Assembly (NCBI RefSeq): GCF_054482595.1
Contig: NZ_CM137008.1
Strand: one strand, 5' to 3'
Length of the DNA stretch: 64,000 bases
Part shown: positions 12,239 through 57,131 of the stretch, one piece after another
How positions within the stretch are numbered: position 1 is the first letter of the stretch
Layout: every line of letters begins with the position of its first letter
Made by a program: the position numbers and the translations under genes
The notes under the pieces: model-generated
The model's database searches: none
What the model was told of the DNA's origin: nothing
Seen by the model: only the letters and a program-made list of their open reading frames with translations

Positions 12239-13346
12239 AGCAACCTCCGTGAAAATGAATAATAATCCGCACATATTGCATGTACAACATGTCGGGCGGA
12301 TGAGATAAGCGAGTCGACATCTGGCGTTACCGGGGAATATCAGAAAAATGTCATGGTTATGTGATGATTTAGTCTGGGATTTTACTTCAGAGAAACGGGT
12401 GTCTGTTTAGTCAACAAAATAATCACAAACGCAACGGATGGGTTCTCGACGTTATTCACGACAGGCTCGTACATTACAGCGAGTAATAAAAAACCCGATA
12501 TGCAAAGTCAAACCAATATTCATAATGTCTTTTTATTCACAACAATAAATAATTTAATAACAATCATTGAAATGAATGATGATTTGTATAAGGAATATAC
12601 GCTACCGCCCCACCCTGATAACATGATCTGCACATTGCCATCTTAACGTCGTTAAACACTGGCTTAATAGTGGATATTTCAAATTAGGAATTTATTAAAT
12701 TCACCTGATGAATATCATAAGCAAATAGCATAGAAAATAATGACAACTCCCCCGAGGGGACCATTTCCAAAGCACTGCACCACCACCTGGTGCCCGGATG
12801 ATCTTGCTTCAGTGGTAAGAGTACCTGATTCATTGTTCCCAAAATGGTGTTTTCCCCTGCCCCTCCAATAATGTGCAGCTCTCACGTGATAATCTATTGA
12901 TTAGGTTATATTAAGAATCAATATTTAAAATACATCCATTTTCTTGAATAAATCAACATGTTTATTAATCAATTGCTGTTTTAGCTCTGACTCATCAAGC
13001 TCTCCATATTTGTCCTACAGATAATTGCGAATAAATACAGAGAACGCCATTTATCCTTTTAGCATACCTGCCGGATATTTTTATTTGTATTAATATTAAT
13101 TGCATCTCCAACTCCGAGCATATCCATCATTAAAAAAATTTTGAGATTATAGAATACCTGTGATAACAAGTGAAACATCTGCACAATGTGAATAGTTAGT
13201 TTCTTTTCAGAGGAAATGAAATAGACACGCTGAATGAAAGGGAGAGTGATATAAATTAAAAAACATAACGTGAATTTAATTAATTACGCCCATCATTGTG
13301 GATAAAGTTACTGAATAATAAATAACATAATCTTCTGGTATCCCAC

Positions 13347-13964: not shown

Positions 13965-14230
13965 ATGCCCCTCACAATCTTTTAAAGATTAAGTGTAGGA
14001 CAGTACACAGGTTAACCAGCAAAAGGATTTGTCATTTTTTCGTCAGTTGTATTAATCCCCTTCAGGATTGTAAGGGGATGTTTTGCATCGTTTATCGATA
14101 ACGGGTAGGATGCTGCGCCGATAGTTTTATACCCATAAAGAATAATGGTGATAACTATCATCGCCAGGATGAATAAACATTGTTCATGGCAACTTATATG
14201 ACTTTTTCATTAAAGCAATCAGGGAGAGCA

Positions 14231-15842: not shown

Positions 15843-16904
15843 TTACAGCGCAATACGAATCACATCGTCTGGCTGGGTAGCTTCCTGCTGTTTAGTGGAT
15901 TTTTGTTTCACACTGACATACAGCGTTTTGCCATCGGCAGACAGCGCCAGGCTGTTTGGATGAGTCGGCGTATCGAACGTTTTCACCACTTTATAGCTTT
16001 TCGCGTCAATCACACTGACTTTACCTGCCTGACGATGCGTTACGTAGGCTTCATTACGCGCTGAGTTAAACAGTACAGCCAGTGATTCCGGTGCCGCAAC
16101 CTTCGCCAGAATATTGCCATTACGGGTATCGACCACTAACACTTCTGCGGCTTTAGAATCGGTGATAAATGCACGCTGCCTGGCGGTATCAAGGCTAATG
16201 TTGATAAAGAAGTGCTCTTTGCCGTCATCCAGCAGCTTTTTACGGCTGAGGATTTTATTGTCGGCGGTGTCGATGGTAATCAATTCGCCGTCAGCGTTAG
16301 TGGTGTAAAGACGTTTGCCTTTGCTATCCAGCGCCAGACCGGTACTCATTTTACCGGTGTTCTGGATGGCGGTTTTCAGTTTGATATTCTCGCCATCAAC
16401 GACCCAAATCACGCTCTCTTTACCAATACCACTGATGTAAACGGTGTTCGTGGCATCATCAGCTACCAGCTCACGCGGTTGCAGCGGGCGCACCTCTTCC
16501 GTGCGCTTACGATCATCCAGCACCAGACGGCCTTTCACTTCGCCCGTTTTGGCATCTATCGCCGTGACCGCGCTGTTTACGGTGTTACCAAACCACAACG
16601 TCTGAGTCGTGTTATTGATGGTGGCACCAAACGGCTTGAGATCGTTATGGATCGCCTGCGTCACTTCCAGAGTGACCGGATCAAGACGATAAACCACGCC
16701 ACCTTTATCCAGTTTGCGGCTTTGCGAAGTGGCGAGCCACAGCGCGTTTTCTTGCTGGCTATAAGCCATTTCGTAGGCACCTTTACCTACCGCTTTACGC
16801 AGCATTTCTTCTGCGGCCTGCGTACTGAATGATGAAGCAACAAGCAATGAACCTAACAGTAATGAACCACGCAGGCGCAATGAAAACAGATGACGTAAAT
16901 GCAT
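15843..16904 (-). CDS. yncE: Secreted beta-propeller protein YncE
   Basis: 353-aa ORF with signal peptide; synteny. Confidence 0.85.
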   Translation of the reverse strand: MHLRHLFSLRLRGSLLLGSLLVASSFSTQAAEEMLRKAVGKGAYEMAYSQQENALWLATSQSRKLDKGGVVYRLDPVTLEVTQAIHNDLKPFGATINNTTQTLWFGNTVNSAVTAIDAKTGEVKGRLVLDDRKRTEEVRPLQPRELVADDATNTVYISGIGKESVIWVVDGENIKLKTAIQNTGKMSTGLALDSKGKRLYTTNADGELITIDTADNKILSRKKLLDDGKEHFFINISLDTARQRAFITDSKAAEVLVVDTRNGNILAKVAAPESLAVLFNSARNEAYVTHRQAGKVSVIDAKSYKVVKTFDTPTHPNSLALSADGKTLYVSVKQKSTKQQEATQPDDVIRIAL

Positions 16905-16990
16905 GACGACTCCCTTTGATGAACCGATATTTTTGCTGCTTCACAATGCTTCGCTAAGCGTAATCATCGTTACGCTCTTGTTATAAATGG

Positions 16991-17009
16991 GAATGGTAAT
17001 CATTATTTT
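16991..17009. promoter_or_regulatory. Candidate Fur box in the divergent yncE/yncD promoter region
   Basis: gaatggtaatcattatttt resembles the Fur consensus gataatgataatcattatc; lies between an iron-receptor gene and yncE. Confidence 0.4.
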
Positions 17010-17145
17010 CTCAAATGTGGAGCATTTCTTGCCGTTACGACTACAATTTTCTCAATTACTTAACGTATTGTGCCGTTTCATTTTCCATAAATTTACAATT
17101 TCATTACCATGACGGCGTTTTCCCATTCTTAACCTGGCTTTTTTC

Positions 17146-19248
17146 ATGAAGATTTTTTCCGTCCGACAGACCGTTTTGCCCGCACTGCTTGTCCTTTCCC
17201 CCGTTGTTTTTGCCGCTGATGAACAGACCATGATTGTCAGTGCCGCGCCGCAGGTGGTTTCAGAACTGGATACCCCTGCAGCAGTAAGCGTGGTGGATGG
17301 CGAGGAGATGCGCCTGGCAACACCGCGCATTAACTTGTCCGAATCACTGACCGGCGTGCCTGGTTTGCAGGTACAAAACCGGCAGAACTATGCGCAAGAT
17401 TTACAGCTGTCGATTCGCGGATTTGGCTCCCGTTCCACTTACGGAATTCGCGGTATTCGCCTGTATGTGGACGGTATTCCCGCCACCATGCCCGACGGGC
17501 AAGGGCAAACATCCAACATCGATTTAAGCAGTGTGCAAAATGTGGAAGTGCTGCGTGGCCCCTTCTCTGCCCTGTATGGCAACGCGTCTGGCGGTGTAAT
17601 GAATGTCACCACCCAGACCGGACAACAGCCACCAACCATTGAAGCCAGTAGTTACTACGGCAGTTTTGGCAGCTGGCGCTATGGGCTGAAAGCAACGGGC
17701 GCAACGGGAGACGGCACACAGCCCGGCGATGTCGATTACACCGTCTCAACCACGCGTTTTACGACCCACGGCTATCGTGACCATAGTGGCGCACAGAAAA
17801 ATTTAGCCAATGCCAAACTGGGCGTACGCATTGATGAAGCCAGCAAATTAAGCCTGATTTTCAATAGTGTGGATATCAAAGCAGATGACCCTGGTGGGCT
17901 AACCAAAGCAGAATGGAAGGCGAATCCACAACAAGCGCCTCGTGCAGAACAGTACGACACGCGAAAAACCATCAAGCAAACTCAGGCTGGGTTGCGCTAT
18001 GAACGTAGCCTGAGTTCGCGGGATGATATGAGTGTGATGATGTATGCCGGAGAGCGAGAAACGACCCAGTATCAGTCAATACCCATGGCACCACAACTTA
18101 ACCCGTCACATGCGGGCGGCGTGATTACCCTGCAACGCCATTACCAGGGAATAGACAGCCGCTGGACACACCGTGGTGAACTGGGCGTTCCGGTCACGTT
18201 CACTACCGGCCTGAACTACGAAAACATGAGTGAAAACCGCAAGGGCTACAATAACTTCCGCCTGAATAGCGGCATGCCGGAGTACGGGCAAAAAGGTGAG
18301 TTGCGTCGCGACGAACGCAATCTGATGTGGAACATCGATCCCTATTTACAGACGCAGTGGCAGCTGAGCGAAAAACTGTCGCTGGATGCTGGCGTGCGCT
18401 ACAGCTCCGTGTGGTTTGATTCCAACGACCATTACGTTACTCCGGGTAACGGCGATGACAGCGGTGATGCCAGTTATCACAAATGGCTACCTGCCGGATC
18501 GCTAAAATATGCAATGACCGATGCCTGGAATATCTATCTGGCAGCCGGGCGTGGTTTTGAAACGCCGACGGTTAATGAGCTGTCTTATCGTGCTGATGGG
18601 CAAAGCGGTATGAACTTTGGTTTAAAACCATCCACCAACGATACAATTGAGATCGGCAGTAAAACGCGTATTGGTGATGGGCTGCTTAGTCTCGCATTGT
18701 TCCAGACCGACACCGATGATGAAATTGTTGTCGATAGCAGTAGCGGTGGGCGTACGACTTACAAAAATGCCGGAAAGACCCGTCGTCAAGGCGTTGAACT
18801 GGCATGGGATCAACGTTTCGCGGGAGATTTTCGCGTAAACGCGTCCTGGACCTGGCTTGATGCGACCTATCGCAGCAATGTTTGCAACGAACAGGATTGT
18901 AACGGTAATCGGATGCCAGGGATCGCCCGTAATATGGGCTTTGCGTCGATAGGTTATGTACCGGAAGATGGTTGGTATGCAGGCACGGAAGCGCGTTATA
19001 TGGGCGATATTATGGCAGATGATGAAAATACGGCAAAAGCGCCGTCTTATACTCTCGTCGGCTTATTCACCGGGTATAAATACAATTACCACAATTTAAC
19101 TGTGGATTTATTTGGTCGTGTCGATAATTTATTCGATAAAGAATACGTTGGTTCTGTCATTGTCAATGAGTCAAACGGGCGATATTACGAACCTGCGCCC
19201 GGACGAAATTATGGTGTCGGCGTGAATATTGCGTTGAGATTTGAGTAA
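17146..19248 (+). CDS. yncD: TonB-dependent outer-membrane receptor
   Basis: 700-aa ORF; signal peptide, plug and beta-barrel; C-terminal aromatic residue (ALRFE-stop). Confidence 0.85.
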   Translation: MKIFSVRQTVLPALLVLSPVVFAADEQTMIVSAAPQVVSELDTPAAVSVVDGEEMRLATPRINLSESLTGVPGLQVQNRQNYAQDLQLSIRGFGSRSTYGIRGIRLYVDGIPATMPDGQGQTSNIDLSSVQNVEVLRGPFSALYGNASGGVMNVTTQTGQQPPTIEASSYYGSFGSWRYGLKATGATGDGTQPGDVDYTVSTTRFTTHGYRDHSGAQKNLANAKLGVRIDEASKLSLIFNSVDIKADDPGGLTKAEWKANPQQAPRAEQYDTRKTIKQTQAGLRYERSLSSRDDMSVMMYAGERETTQYQSIPMAPQLNPSHAGGVITLQRHYQGIDSRWTHRGELGVPVTFTTGLNYENMSENRKGYNNFRLNSGMPEYGQKGELRRDERNLMWNIDPYLQTQWQLSEKLSLDAGVRYSSVWFDSNDHYVTPGNGDDSGDASYHKWLPAGSLKYAMTDAWNIYLAAGRGFETPTVNELSYRADGQSGMNFGLKPSTNDTIEIGSKTRIGDGLLSLALFQTDTDDEIVVDSSSGGRTTYKNAGKTRRQGVELAWDQRFAGDFRVNASWTWLDATYRSNVCNEQDCNGNRMPGIARNMGFASIGYVPEDGWYAGTEARYMGDIMADDENTAKAPSYTLVGLFTGYKYNYHNLTVDLFGRVDNLFDKEYVGSVIVNESNGRYYEPAPGRNYGVGVNIALRFE

Positions 19249-53228: not shown

Positions 53229-56200
53229 TTAACCGCTAATCTGCTCCATCGCCTGCAAAATACGCTTATCTGAAATCGGATAAGGTGTACCGAGTTGTTG
53301 GGCAAAATAGCTGACGCGCAGCTCTTCTATCATCCAACGGATCTCTTTCACGTCTTCATCCTCACGACGTGCAGGCGGCAGTTTGTTGATCCATTGCTGC
53401 CACGCCTGCTGGACGTTTTCGACTTTCAGCATCTGAGCACGGTCGCGATGTGGGTCAACCCCCAGTTTTTCCAGTCGTTTTTCAATCGCCTGCAAATAAC
53501 GCAGCGTGTCGCCCAGCCGTTTGAAGCCGTTACCAGTCACAAAACCGCGATACACCAACCCGCCCATCTGCGCTTTAATGTCAGAAAGCCCCAGCGCCAT
53601 GGTCATATCCACCCGCCCTTTCAGGCGTTTGTTGATATTGAACACTGCCGTAAGGATTTGCTCGACCTGCTTCGCAATATCCACCACCGTGTCGTTCAGT
53701 TCAGCGCGAACTTTTTCATGCAGCGCAGCAAAGCCTTCTTCCGTCCAGACCGGGCCACCATTGGCGTCGATCAGTTGATCCACACCGCAGGAGATACAGT
53801 CGTCGATCAGCTCCAGCACTTTGCCATACGGGTTAAAGTACAGCCCCAGCTTGGCTTTGTTTGGTAACTTCTCATGTAAATACTTGATTGGTGAGGGAAT
53901 ATTCAGCAGCAGTAGACGGCGAAGACCGTTCCACATTGCCTGTTTTTGCTCCAGCGGGTTATCAAACAGTTTGATCGCCACACTGTCGCGCTCATCCACC
54001 AGCGCCGGCCACGCCTTCACTTTGTAGTTACCACGCTTCTGTTCGTAGCTTTCCGGCAACTGACCAAAACTCCAGATATGTAAGCCGCTCTGCTCGATAC
54101 CGTCATCCGCCACCGCAGATAGCGTTTCCTGCACTTTGCCTTTCAGCGCATCTTTCAGATCTTGTAGCGAGCGCCCTTCTTTTAGCTTCTTGTTTTTGTC
54201 ATCCACCACGCGGAAGGTGATTTTCAGGTGATCGGGCACCTGATCCCAGTGCCAGTCTTCGCGGTCAACGGTAACGCCGGTCATCCGCCGTAACTCGCGC
54301 TCAAGGCTGTCGAGCAACGGTAACTCCAGCGGTGTGACGCGGCCTAAAAACGCTTCGGCATAGTTTGGCGCAGGTACAAAATTACGGCGTACCGGTTTCG
54401 GCAACGATTTAATCAGAGCAATCACCAGTTCGCGGCGCAGACCAGGGATCTGCCATTCAAACCCGCTTTCCTCAACCTGGTTAAGTAACGGCAGCGGAAT
54501 ATGTACGGTCACACCGTCAGCATCCGCGCCGGGCTCAAACTGATAGCTCAAACGCAGCTTGAGATTGCCCTGATGCCAGAAGTTCGGGTAATCCAGCTTG
54601 CTGATCTTTTCCGCCCCTTCTTTGATCAACATGCTCTTTTCAAAGTTGAGCAAATCAGGCGTTTCGCGGCTGACTTTTTTCCACCAGCTGTCGAAGTGAC
54701 GAGCGGAGATTACATCGTGGCTGATGCGCTGGTCGTAGAACTCAAACAGCGTTTCGTCATCAACCAGAATATCGCGGCGACGTGATTTGTGTTCAAGCTC
54801 TTCCACTTCGGCCCGCAGTTTCAGGTTTTCACGGAAGAATGCGTGACGCGTCTGCCAGTCACCTTCCACCAGCGCGTGGCGAATAAAGAGTTCACGACAT
54901 AACGCCGGATCGATCTGGCTGTAGTTGACCTTGCGCGCGGCAACAATCGGCAAACCATAAACAGTGACTTTTTCCGTTGCCATCACCGCGCCCTGCGCCC
55001 GTTCCCAGTGCGGTTCGCTGTAGGTACGTTTAATCAAATGCTGAGCGACAGGCTCCACCCATTCCGGGTCGATACGCGCAGCAATGCGCCCCCACAGGCG
55101 GCTGGTTTCTACCAGTTCCGCCACCATTACCCATTTCGGCGGTTTTTTGAATAAACCAGAACCGGGGAAGATGGAGAAACGCGCGTTACGTGCGCCGGTA
55201 TATTCTTGTTTATCGGCATCTTTCATGCCGATATGGGAAAGCAAACCCGTCAGCAACGCAATGTGAATTTCGCGATATTCCGCCGGTTCGCTGTTCACCG
55301 GAATGCCGAGTTCTTTCACCACCTGGCGCAACTGGGTGTAGATATCCTGCCATTCGCGCACGCGCAGATAGTTGAGATAATCGGTACGACACAGGCGACG
55401 GAAGGCGTTGGAAGAAAGCGCCTTTTGCTGCTCGCCAAGATAATTCCACAGATTCACAAACGCGAGGAAGTCAGACTCTTTGTCGTGGAAGCGACGATGT
55501 TTTTCGTCCGATGCCTGCTGTTTGTCCATCGGACGTTCGCGCGGATCCTGAATGGAGAGCGCGGACGTGATAATCATCGCCTCACGCACGCAGCCATGTT
55601 TTTGCGCTTCCAGCACCATACGCGCCAGACGTGGGTCGACAGGCAACTGCGAGAGCTGGCGACCGAGCGGCGTCAATTTATAGGCGCTGGCCTGTTCATC
55701 AGTGGTGATCGCGCCCAGCTCTTCGAGCAGACGCACGCCATCCTGGATATTGCGTTTATCCGGTGCTTCGACAAACGGGAACGCAGCGATATCGCCCAGC
55801 CCCAGCGCGGTCATCTGCAAAATAACCGAGGCCAGGTTGGTACGCAGAATTTCCGGGTCGGTAAACTCCGGGCGCGAGAGGAAATCGTCTTCGGAATAGA
55901 GACGAATACAGATCCCTTCGGACACACGACCACAGCGGCCTTTACGCTGATTGGCAGACGCCTGCGAAATGGGCTCAATCGGCAAACGCTGCACTTTGGT
56001 GCGATAGCTGTAGCGGCTGATACGCGCCGTACCGGGGTCGATAACGTATTTAATCCCCGGTACAGTCAGCGAGGTTTCCGCGACGTTGGTCGCCAGCACA
56101 ATGCGTCGCCCGCTGTGCGACTGGAACACGCGGTTCTGTTCGCTATTCGAAAGCCGCGCATAAAGCGGCAAGATTTCGGTATGGCGTAAGTTCAGCTTGT

Positions 56201-57131
56201 TCAGCGCATCGGCGGTATCGCGAATTTCCCGCTCGCCGCTCATAAAGATCAGAATGTCGCCGGGGCTTTCCTGGCTTAGTTCGTCTACGGCGTCAAAAAT
56301 CGCCTGCAACTGATCGCGCTCGGTGTCATCGGCTTCTTCAACAATCGGGCGATAGCGCACTTCCACCGGATAGGTCCGACCGGAGACTTCAATAATCGGC
56401 GCATTATTAAAGTGGCGCGAAAAGCGTTCCGGGTCGATAGTCGCGGAAGTGATAATGATTTTTAGGTCAGGACGCCGCGGCAGCAACTCTTTCAAATAGC
56501 CGAGCAGAAAATCGATATTCAGGCTGCGTTCGTGCGCTTCGTCAATAATGATGGTGTCGTACTGCATCAGCAGGCGGTCTTGCTGGATCTCCGCCAGCAG
56601 GATACCGTCGGTCATCAGCTTGACCATCGTGTTATCACTTACGTGATCGCTGAAACGCACTTTGTAACCGATGCAACCGCCCGGCTCCGTTTTCAGCTCT
56701 TCCGCAATACGGTTCGCCACCGTTCTTGCCGCCAGGCGACGCGGCTGGGTATGGCCGATCAGCCCTTTAATCCCGCGCCCCAGCTCCATACAGATTTTCG
56801 GTAACTGAGTCGTTTTACCAGAACCCGTTTCCCCGGCGACGATCACCACCTGGTGATCACGAATCGCTTCGAGAATGTCCTGCTTTTTCTGACTAACCGG
56901 TAAATTGTCAGGATAAGTAATTTCCGGTCGTGCCGCTTCACGCAGCAGGACTTTCCCTGCCGCCTGGTCAATCTCTTTCGCCATCTCCTGGAAAATGGCC
57001 TGTTGTGCATCAGGATTTTTAACCTTCTTCACGCCGTGCAGACGGCGAGAAAAACGCAGTCTGTCACGCAGCATCAGCGAATCCAGCCGCTGCTGCAAGG
57101 CCGTAAAGGTCAATTTTTGTTGTTCTGTCAT
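53229..57131 (-). CDS. hrpA: ATP-dependent RNA helicase HrpA (DEAH-box)
   Basis: 1300-aa ORF; Walker A GETGSGKTTQ, DEAH motif, helicase C-terminal domains. Confidence 0.9.
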   Translation of the reverse strand: MTEQQKLTFTALQQRLDSLMLRDRLRFSRRLHGVKKVKNPDAQQAIFQEMAKEIDQAAGKVLLREAARPEITYPDNLPVSQKKQDILEAIRDHQVVIVAGETGSGKTTQLPKICMELGRGIKGLIGHTQPRRLAARTVANRIAEELKTEPGGCIGYKVRFSDHVSDNTMVKLMTDGILLAEIQQDRLLMQYDTIIIDEAHERSLNIDFLLGYLKELLPRRPDLKIIITSATIDPERFSRHFNNAPIIEVSGRTYPVEVRYRPIVEEADDTERDQLQAIFDAVDELSQESPGDILIFMSGEREIRDTADALNKLNLRHTEILPLYARLSNSEQNRVFQSHSGRRIVLATNVAETSLTVPGIKYVIDPGTARISRYSYRTKVQRLPIEPISQASANQRKGRCGRVSEGICIRLYSEDDFLSRPEFTDPEILRTNLASVILQMTALGLGDIAAFPFVEAPDKRNIQDGVRLLEELGAITTDEQASAYKLTPLGRQLSQLPVDPRLARMVLEAQKHGCVREAMIITSALSIQDPRERPMDKQQASDEKHRRFHDKESDFLAFVNLWNYLGEQQKALSSNAFRRLCRTDYLNYLRVREWQDIYTQLRQVVKELGIPVNSEPAEYREIHIALLTGLLSHIGMKDADKQEYTGARNARFSIFPGSGLFKKPPKWVMVAELVETSRLWGRIAARIDPEWVEPVAQHLIKRTYSEPHWERAQGAVMATEKVTVYGLPIVAARKVNYSQIDPALCRELFIRHALVEGDWQTRHAFFRENLKLRAEVEELEHKSRRRDILVDDETLFEFYDQRISHDVISARHFDSWWKKVSRETPDLLNFEKSMLIKEGAEKISKLDYPNFWHQGNLKLRLSYQFEPGADADGVTVHIPLPLLNQVEESGFEWQIPGLRRELVIALIKSLPKPVRRNFVPAPNYAEAFLGRVTPLELPLLDSLERELRRMTGVTVDREDWHWDQVPDHLKITFRVVDDKNKKLKEGRSLQDLKDALKGKVQETLSAVADDGIEQSGLHIWSFGQLPESYEQKRGNYKVKAWPALVDERDSVAIKLFDNPLEQKQAMWNGLRRLLLLNIPSPIKYLHEKLPNKAKLGLYFNPYGKVLELIDDCISCGVDQLIDANGGPVWTEEGFAALHEKVRAELNDTVVDIAKQVEQILTAVFNINKRLKGRVDMTMALGLSDIKAQMGGLVYRGFVTGNGFKRLGDTLRYLQAIEKRLEKLGVDPHRDRAQMLKVENVQQAWQQWINKLPPARREDEDVKEIRWMIEELRVSYFAQQLGTPYPISDKRILQAMEQISG

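Follow-up and report, generated by a model that had tools for sequence, protein, structure and literature searches.

A conserved, Fur-occupied box in the divergent yncE–pqqU spacer of Escherichia coli very probably acts as the operator of yncE

The short intergenic region that separates yncE from the divergently transcribed TonB-dependent receptor gene pqqU contains a 19-bp sequence, at 16989..17007, that is very probably the Fur operator of the yncE promoter, repressing yncE when iron is plentiful. The sequence matches the Fur consensus, is occupied by Fur in vivo, precedes a gene whose expression depends on Fur and on iron, and is conserved across enterobacterial genera. It is best read as an operator of yncE, with a control of pqqU that is at most weak, conditional, or indirect. 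The receptor is an importer of pyrroloquinoline quinone (PQQ) and not of iron, and the adjoining Fur box should not be taken as a sign of iron regulation of pqqU. The yncE Fur box is already known, the same locus with the identical sequence being present in E. coli K-12, and the discovery value is correspondingly small: earlier publications and a number of genome-wide data sets already document that Fur represses yncE via this box. What is new here is confined to small annotations, namely a covarying leader hairpin, a block complementary to RyhB, and a pqqU-proximal block with a marbox-like sequence. Positions throughout refer to the window, the whole 64,000-nucleotide stretch of DNA that was analyzed.

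The open reading frames and the sequence define a spacer of 241 bp, 16905..17145, between the divergent yncE and yncD/pqqU (Table 1). It is AT-rich, with a G+C content of 37%. RefSeq annotates the yncE product as a periplasmic seven-bladed beta-propeller protein; the product of pqqU, formerly yncD, is the TonB-dependent receptor PqqU, which by annotation and published function imports PQQ. A 901-bp query spanning the spacer found matches in 5,411 of the 5,426 complete E. coli genomes, and over this query the yncE–pqqU region is 100% identical to that of the O145 strain RM9872. The spacer itself is identical to those of MG1655 and W3110, base for base (100% identity), and thus the K-12 data discussed below transfer directly to the window. 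The small open reading frames 16987..17112 and 17015..17149 were rejected as coding, as the indels in the alignment columns that they span are not multiples of three. An Rfam scan of 16600-17500 matched no family. Between RM9872 (NZ_CP028379.1) and the window, the coordinate offset shifts by ~1.7 kb from the yncE region to hrpA (53229..57131), which means that the window either departs from full collinearity with that strain or derives from another E. coli strain.

Table 1. Features of the yncE–pqqU region, in window positions
Feature	Position	Strand	Basis and remarks
yncE coding sequence	15843..16904	minus	353 aa; open reading frame and RefSeq annotation of identical DNA
yncE Shine-Dalgarno region AAAGGGAG	16910..16917	minus	nearly invariant in 60 species
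Leader element GAAGCATTGTGAAGCAGC	16935..16952	minus	conserved; complementary to the RyhB core UCACAUUGCUUCC
Stem-loop AGCGTAA-CGATGA-TTACGCT	16957..16976	minus	inverted repeat; start of the yncE leader
Weaker overlapping Fur box ATAAATGGGAATGGTAATC	16983..17001	.	14.6 bits; offset from the primary box by 6 bp
Primary Fur box GGGAATGGTAATCATTATT (yncE-sense AATAATGATTACCATTCCC)	16989..17007	.	15/19 consensus; 18.0 bits
Predicted yncE -10 TACCAT	16993..16998	minus	inferred; inside the Fur box; conserved as TAC[CT]AT
Predicted yncE -35 TCCACA	17016..17021	minus	inferred; conserved columns CTCCACATT
pqqU-proximal conserved block	17057..17110	plus	60-species alignment; absent in Citrobacter loci without pqqU
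yncD (pqqU) coding sequence	17146..19248	plus	700 aa; open reading frame, RefSeq annotation, and published function

The original prediction named a Fur-box-like string, gaatggtaatcattatttt, between yncE and a TonB-dependent receptor gene. The string is found exactly at 16991..17009, and both the open reading frames and the annotation confirm its placement; the best register against the 19-bp Fur consensus GATAATGATAATCATTATC lies 2 nt to the left, at the primary box, within which the stretch 16997-17005 reads TAATCATTA. This box is the sole match of at least 15/19 in the 64-kb window, where sites with three or fewer mismatches are absent and the yncE box has four. In Markov-1 resamples, matches of at least 15/19 arise 0.17 times per 64 kb and with a probability of 0.0024 in the AT-rich 241-bp spacer. 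The likeness to the consensus was also measured by matrix scoring, a check that the original prediction had proposed. An independent matrix was derived from 17 canonical K-12 Fur-regulated promoters (fhuA, fepA-fes, fepD-entS, fepB-entC, fiu, fhuE, tonB, sufA, cirA, exbB, feoA, sodA, fhuF-yjjZ, nrdH, yddA, mntH, and ryhB), with yncE left out, by taking one site per region and refining iteratively. When each canonical site was left out in turn and scored, the values spanned 3.4 to 22.5 bits with a median of about 17; the yncE box scores 18.0 bits, a level expected 0.05 times per 64 kb and with a probability of 0.0015 in the spacer. The Fur-box match is well beyond chance, and the resemblance originally proposed stands. 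A weaker box overlaps the primary one, and at several Enterobacter and Lelliottia loci the better match is a box shifted 6 bp toward yncE, GATTACTATTCTCATTATC; such 6-bp-shifted boxes fit the hexamer-array binding typical of Fur.

Elsewhere in the window, a score equal to that of the yncE box, 18.0 bits, is reached by GGAAGTGATAATGATTTTT at 56445..56463, within the hrpA open reading frame (1300 aa, minus strand); in the protein this stretch corresponds to KIIITS, a helicase motif. The published peak lists contain no Fur ChIP-exo peak near hrpA, and the match is probably a coincidence of coding sequence. An equal score at a site without a reported peak means that a matrix score alone is no proof of function. 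Fur-like matches also occur at 14141..14159 (AATAATGGTGATAACTATC, 13.5 bits), upstream of ansP in the yncG-ansP spacer, and at 13314..13332 (14.9 bits). The ansP transcript changes by log2 -1.39 in the Δfur derivative of MG1655 and is unchanged in that of W3110 (Gao et al. 2023 supplement, PMC10164565).

Occupancy in vivo, for which the original prediction had suggested Fur ChIP, is documented by published ChIP-exo data. In iron-replete W3110, a Fur peak lies at 1524928-1524940 (Gao et al. 2023, PMC10164565, Dataset 2); mapped through the yncE start at 1525021, it corresponds to 16985..16997 of the window and overlaps the box by 9 bp. The peak is 13 bp wide and off-center relative to the box. 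For MG1655, the same study lists a Fur peak at 1521238-1521250 (numbered as in NC_000913.2); after correction for the 1,976 bp by which the genome versions are offset, its relative position agrees with that of the W3110 peak. Fur binding upstream of yncE was likewise reported by Beauchene et al. (2015), and yncE was assigned to the direct Fur regulon of strain CFT073 by Banerjee et al. (2020). In the MG1655 sheet of Dataset 2 of Gao et al. (2023), gene labels stand one row out of place for peaks around P37-P46 and the tonB label is missing, which makes the printed peak-to-gene assignments there unreliable.

The expression of yncE follows Fur and iron. In iron-replete medium, loss of fur raises the yncE transcript by log2 3.10 in MG1655 (8.6-fold) and by log2 8.14 in W3110 (about 280-fold), with values of log2 3.6-5.5 in six further Δfur strains; yncE belongs to the Fur regulon in eight of the nine strains (Gao et al. 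2023, PMC10164565). The YncE protein is overproduced in a fur mutant (Moriel et al. 2016), yncE is a published member of the Fur-1 and Fur-2 iModulons, iron limitation has been reported to raise its transcript 16-fold, and three further papers trace the control of yncE by Fur to McHugh et al. (2003). With a ChIP-exo peak on the box and strong derepression in Δfur strains, the iron- and Fur-dependent control of yncE that was originally suggested is borne out.

A scan of a genome collection with YncE retrieved 80 loci from about 25 enterobacterial genera, 78 of them with usable upstream sequence. At all 78, the best match to the Fur consensus is the orthologous box or its hexamer-shifted neighbor. 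The orthologous box follows the pattern A[AT]TAATGATTA[CT][CT]ATTC[CTG]C and ends 74-88 bp upstream of the yncE ATG at 75 of the 78 loci, the other three having shorter leaders in which this distance is 33-43 bp (L031, L039, and L041); among 60 complete spacers it scores 11.3-23.7 bits, with a median of 16.6. The alignment of 60 distinct spacers resolves a conserved module in which GAAATGCTCCACATT is followed directly by the Fur box (17024..16987), together with a leader block, the Shine-Dalgarno region, and a pqqU-side block at about 17057..17110. Between the box and the latter block the sequence varies, and indels are frequent.

At nine loci, pqqU is missing from the region upstream of yncE. 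Eight of these carry the name Citrobacter (L010, L011, L013, L014, L018, L020, L022, and L026), and the ninth is named Leclercia (L025), its short contig giving just 241 bp of sequence upstream of yncE. The Fur box is kept in all nine. The eight Citrobacter loci, when aligned, remain homologous from the yncE ATG up to about -150, a stretch that includes the box and CTCCAC; beyond it homology ends, and the pqqU-proximal block is gone. Since the box is retained where pqqU is missing, it travels with yncE. Fragments of pqqU are all that is present in Escherichia albertii (L006), one C. amalonaticus strain (L023), and Trabulsiella (L049). The gene has been lost repeatedly, with yncE and its Fur-controlled promoter retained.

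The arrangement of conserved columns allows a core promoter of yncE to be proposed. The candidate -35 falls within CTCCACATT, whose columns rank with the best conserved in the spacer alignment of 60 species, and the candidate -10, which lies inside the Fur box, reads TACTAT in most other genera. The distance from the start of CTCCAC to AATGATT is exactly 18 bp at all 55 of 55 loci, which places a fixed 17-bp spacer between the two predicted elements. The pair agrees with the consensus at only 8 of 12 positions, and the promoter scan did not pick it up; the assignment is a prediction with which the invariant spacing and the conservation fit. An alternative -10, TATAAC at 16980-16985, was set aside, as it is not kept in Citrobacter. 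Transcription of yncE would start near 16986, just upstream of the leader hairpin, a placement that follows from the covariation of the latter.

These elements suggest how the operator may work, through an occlusion mechanism that we infer from their positions. When iron is plentiful, Fe2+-Fur dimers would bind 16983..17007, the two overlapping boxes in hexamer phase suggesting more than one dimer. As the Fur box covers the spacer and the -10 of the predicted core promoter, RNA polymerase would be kept off. When iron is scarce, Fur would leave and yncE would be transcribed from the start near 16986, giving an mRNA that presumably begins with the 5′ stem-loop and continues with the RyhB-complementary element. 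RyhB, itself repressed by Fur, could then raise yncE further, which would constitute a coherent feed-forward loop. On this model, transcription of pqqU would depend on another conserved block, which lies about 60-100 bp from the box, and the box itself would have no appreciable hold on pqqU under most conditions.

The leader hairpin, with a 7-bp stem and a 6-nt loop, lies just downstream of the Fur box and is present in nearly all lineages of the Enterobacteriaceae, although the stem sequences differ. Compensatory changes occur in all seven of its base pairs; 90.7% of the alignment cells are paired versus 68.5% in shuffles, and covariation scores 0.76 versus about 0.15 in slid controls. It is probably a 5′-terminal structure of the yncE mRNA, and no description of it was found in the literature examined. 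A scan had called 16957-16976 terminator-like on the plus strand; covariation and position indicate a yncE leader stem-loop instead. The loop contains an ATG that could open a small upstream reading frame, 8 codons long in Escherichia and part of Citrobacter; this candidate was also dismissed, as other genera do not conserve the frame.

Downstream of the hairpin, the leader element GAAGCATTGTGAAGCAGC reads GGAAGCAATGT in most genera, with the conserved pattern GAAGCA(A/T)TGT. When pairing was limited to the seed region of RyhB, as the full-length duplex is uninformative, the predicted duplex with the yncE leader reached -23.1 kcal/mol, and 3.3% of shuffles were as good (p about 0.03). Activation of yncE by RyhB has been published, as has a CopraRNA rank of 834 for the RyhB–yncE interaction. 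The element is a plausible RyhB pairing site, with an energy that improves only modestly on that of shuffles.

As for the other side of the box, PqqU carries PQQ rather than iron (Hantke & Friz 2022; Grinter & Lithgow 2020), and YncD/PqqU has been described as neither Fur-regulated nor iron-induced (Grinter & Lithgow 2020; Hantke & Friz 2022, citing McHugh 2003 and Seo 2014). In the Δfur derivative of MG1655, the yncD transcript changes by log2 0.12 (p = 0.39); yncD is in the Fur regulon of two of nine strains, W3110 (log2 2.95, p = 3e-51) and 042 (log2 2.02) (Gao et al. 2023, PMC10164565). By these literature data for yncD, the two divergent units are not both responsive to Fur and iron. Between the pqqU ATG and the start of the box lie 139 bp. 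Depending on the genus, 82 to 160 bp (sd 16) separate the box from the TGTAAA motif of the pqqU-proximal block, so that the spacing on the side of the presumed second promoter is unconstrained whereas the distance to the predicted yncE -35 is invariant. The pqqU-proximal block presumably holds the pqqU promoter or regulator sites, as its conservation and its absence from pqqU-less Citrobacter loci would suggest; it contains a conserved TTTACA(A/T). Besides the yncE boxes, the only Fur-like site in the spacer is a weak one of 9.1 bits at 17090..17108, which overlaps the conserved TTTACAAT near pqqU. Across the 60 species, the pqqU-proximal spacer has no conserved Fur-like site, the median best score being 5.6 bits.

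A sigma-70 scan returned one plus-strand match, TTCACA-16-AATCAT at 16940-16967, as a possible pqqU promoter. It was rejected: the -35 of this match is the conserved element complementary to RyhB read in reverse, the -10 falls into the loop of the hairpin and is AGTCAT-like in other genera, and about 0.7 such matches are expected by chance. In MG1655, an additional ChIP-exo peak at 1520944-1520980 (NC_000913.2) corresponds to about 17255..17291, some 110-145 nt into the pqqU coding sequence; no Fur-like sequence lies under this intragenic peak, the best nearby score being 4.8 bits.

Several readings other than that of a yncE operator can be weighed against these data. That the box is a chance AT-rich resemblance without function has a vanishingly small probability: such a reading could draw on the equally scoring match at 56445 inside the hrpA coding sequence, with no ChIP-exo peak reported, yet it is already refuted by the in vivo occupancy and strong Δfur phenotype of yncE and by the conservation of the box, which is kept at all 78 loci at a fixed distance from the promoter elements, and in the spacer a match of this quality would arise by chance with a probability near 0.002. 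A second reading takes the one box for a shared bidirectional operator through which iron would control yncE and the receptor gene alike, in the manner of fepA-fes or fepB-entC, and shared iron-responsive control is what the original prediction had proposed. The yncE half of that proposal holds; the receptor half does not hold in MG1655, where yncD is unchanged upon loss of fur, and extends to two strains among nine. The genes do share a single divergent spacer, the W3110 peak was assigned to both transcription units (Gao et al. 2023), yncD is derepressed in Δfur W3110 and 042, and the 9.1-bit site overlapping TTTACAAT lies near pqqU. Wild-type expression adds a further point in favor, as yncE stands at about 300 in MG1655 versus 18 in W3110, a sign of weak repression in MG1655, and yncD in MG1655 stands at about 30, already at the level of derepressed W3110; with repression this weak and yncD this high, a weak Fur dependence could be masked. 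Against these points stand the placement of yncD outside the Fur regulon in seven of the nine strains, the published statements that YncD is neither Fur-regulated nor iron-induced, the long and variable distances to the pqqU ATG and the pqqU-proximal block, the lack of conserved Fur-like sites near pqqU, the persistence of the box where pqqU is gone, and a substrate that is PQQ and not iron. The Δfur transcriptome of W3110 is moreover broadly shifted, with thrABC up about 3-fold, and some of its changes are probably indirect. Overall, the data argue weakly for control of the receptor gene by the box, and a shared operator of this kind appears distinctly unlikely.

The response of pqqU in some Δfur strains may instead be real and yet indirect, with no action of Fur on the pqqU promoter; possible routes are transcription-coupled negative supercoiling from the very strongly derepressed divergent yncE promoter and global changes in the physiology of Δfur cells. 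The pqqU effect is seen where the derepression of yncE is largest, in W3110, many unrelated genes shift in the same data, and pqqU has no conserved Fur site, all of which an indirect response would accommodate. The same K-12 spacer shows no effect in MG1655, which counts against it, though yncE rises only 8.6-fold there, and we consider an indirect response rather improbable. About as doubtful is a conditional or strain-dependent spillover of Fur onto pqqU, at which the W3110 and 042 Δfur data hint: where Fe2+-Fur occupancy is high, the strong yncE operator, possibly with the help of the weak Escherichia-specific site at 17090..17108, would dampen pqqU as well. If such spillover were true, iron starvation would raise PQQ scavenging, in contradiction to the statement that PqqU is not Fur-regulated.

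The reading of the box as a yncE operator can be set beside systems already described. Work by McHugh and colleagues in 2003 and by Seo and colleagues in 2014 is reported to have covered the K-12 yncE Fur box and the Fur-repressed promoter at this gene. The closest likeness is the K-12 yncE box itself (Beauchene 2015; Gao 2023), which shares the locus, the box, the ChIP-exo position, and the regulation; nothing substantive differs, and only the E. coli strain is another. The enterobactin regions fepA-fes, fepD-entS, and fepB-entC resemble the yncE–pqqU spacer in having divergent genes, an AT-rich spacer, and Fur boxes built as hexamer arrays, and their boxes score 17-20 bits in leave-one-out analysis, compared with 18.0 for the yncE box. 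There, however, both units are Fur-repressed, whereas here only yncE responds consistently and its partner does so in two of nine strains; both enterobactin promoters, furthermore, have constrained Fur sites, and pqqU is without a conserved one.

Parallels can also be drawn for each gene separately. Like cirA and shiA, which are under the control of Fur and/or RyhB, yncE is Fur-repressed, up-regulated by RyhB, and preceded by a conserved RyhB-complementary leader element; the difference is that for yncE both the pairing site and the mode of activation are putative, with a poor CopraRNA rank and a p of about 0.03. PqqU resembles BtuB, a TonB-dependent importer of a non-iron cofactor that lies outside the Fur regulon: PqqU, too, imports a scarce cofactor, PQQ, and is reported to be neither Fur-regulated nor induced by iron. 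The difference from btuB is that pqqU adjoins a promoter under Fur control and that its expression changes with Fur in two of the strains.

The spacer also contains marbox-like sequences. RegulonDB lists a MarA site at -41.5 of yncEp, and Reg-Seq reports no MarA footprint at yncEp. Measured against the MarA/SoxS/Rob marbox consensus, the 20-mer at 17057-17076, at the yncE-proximal edge of the pqqU-side block and read on the minus strand, matches at 13 of 14 positions, and a second sequence at 17016-17035 matches that consensus at 11 of 14.
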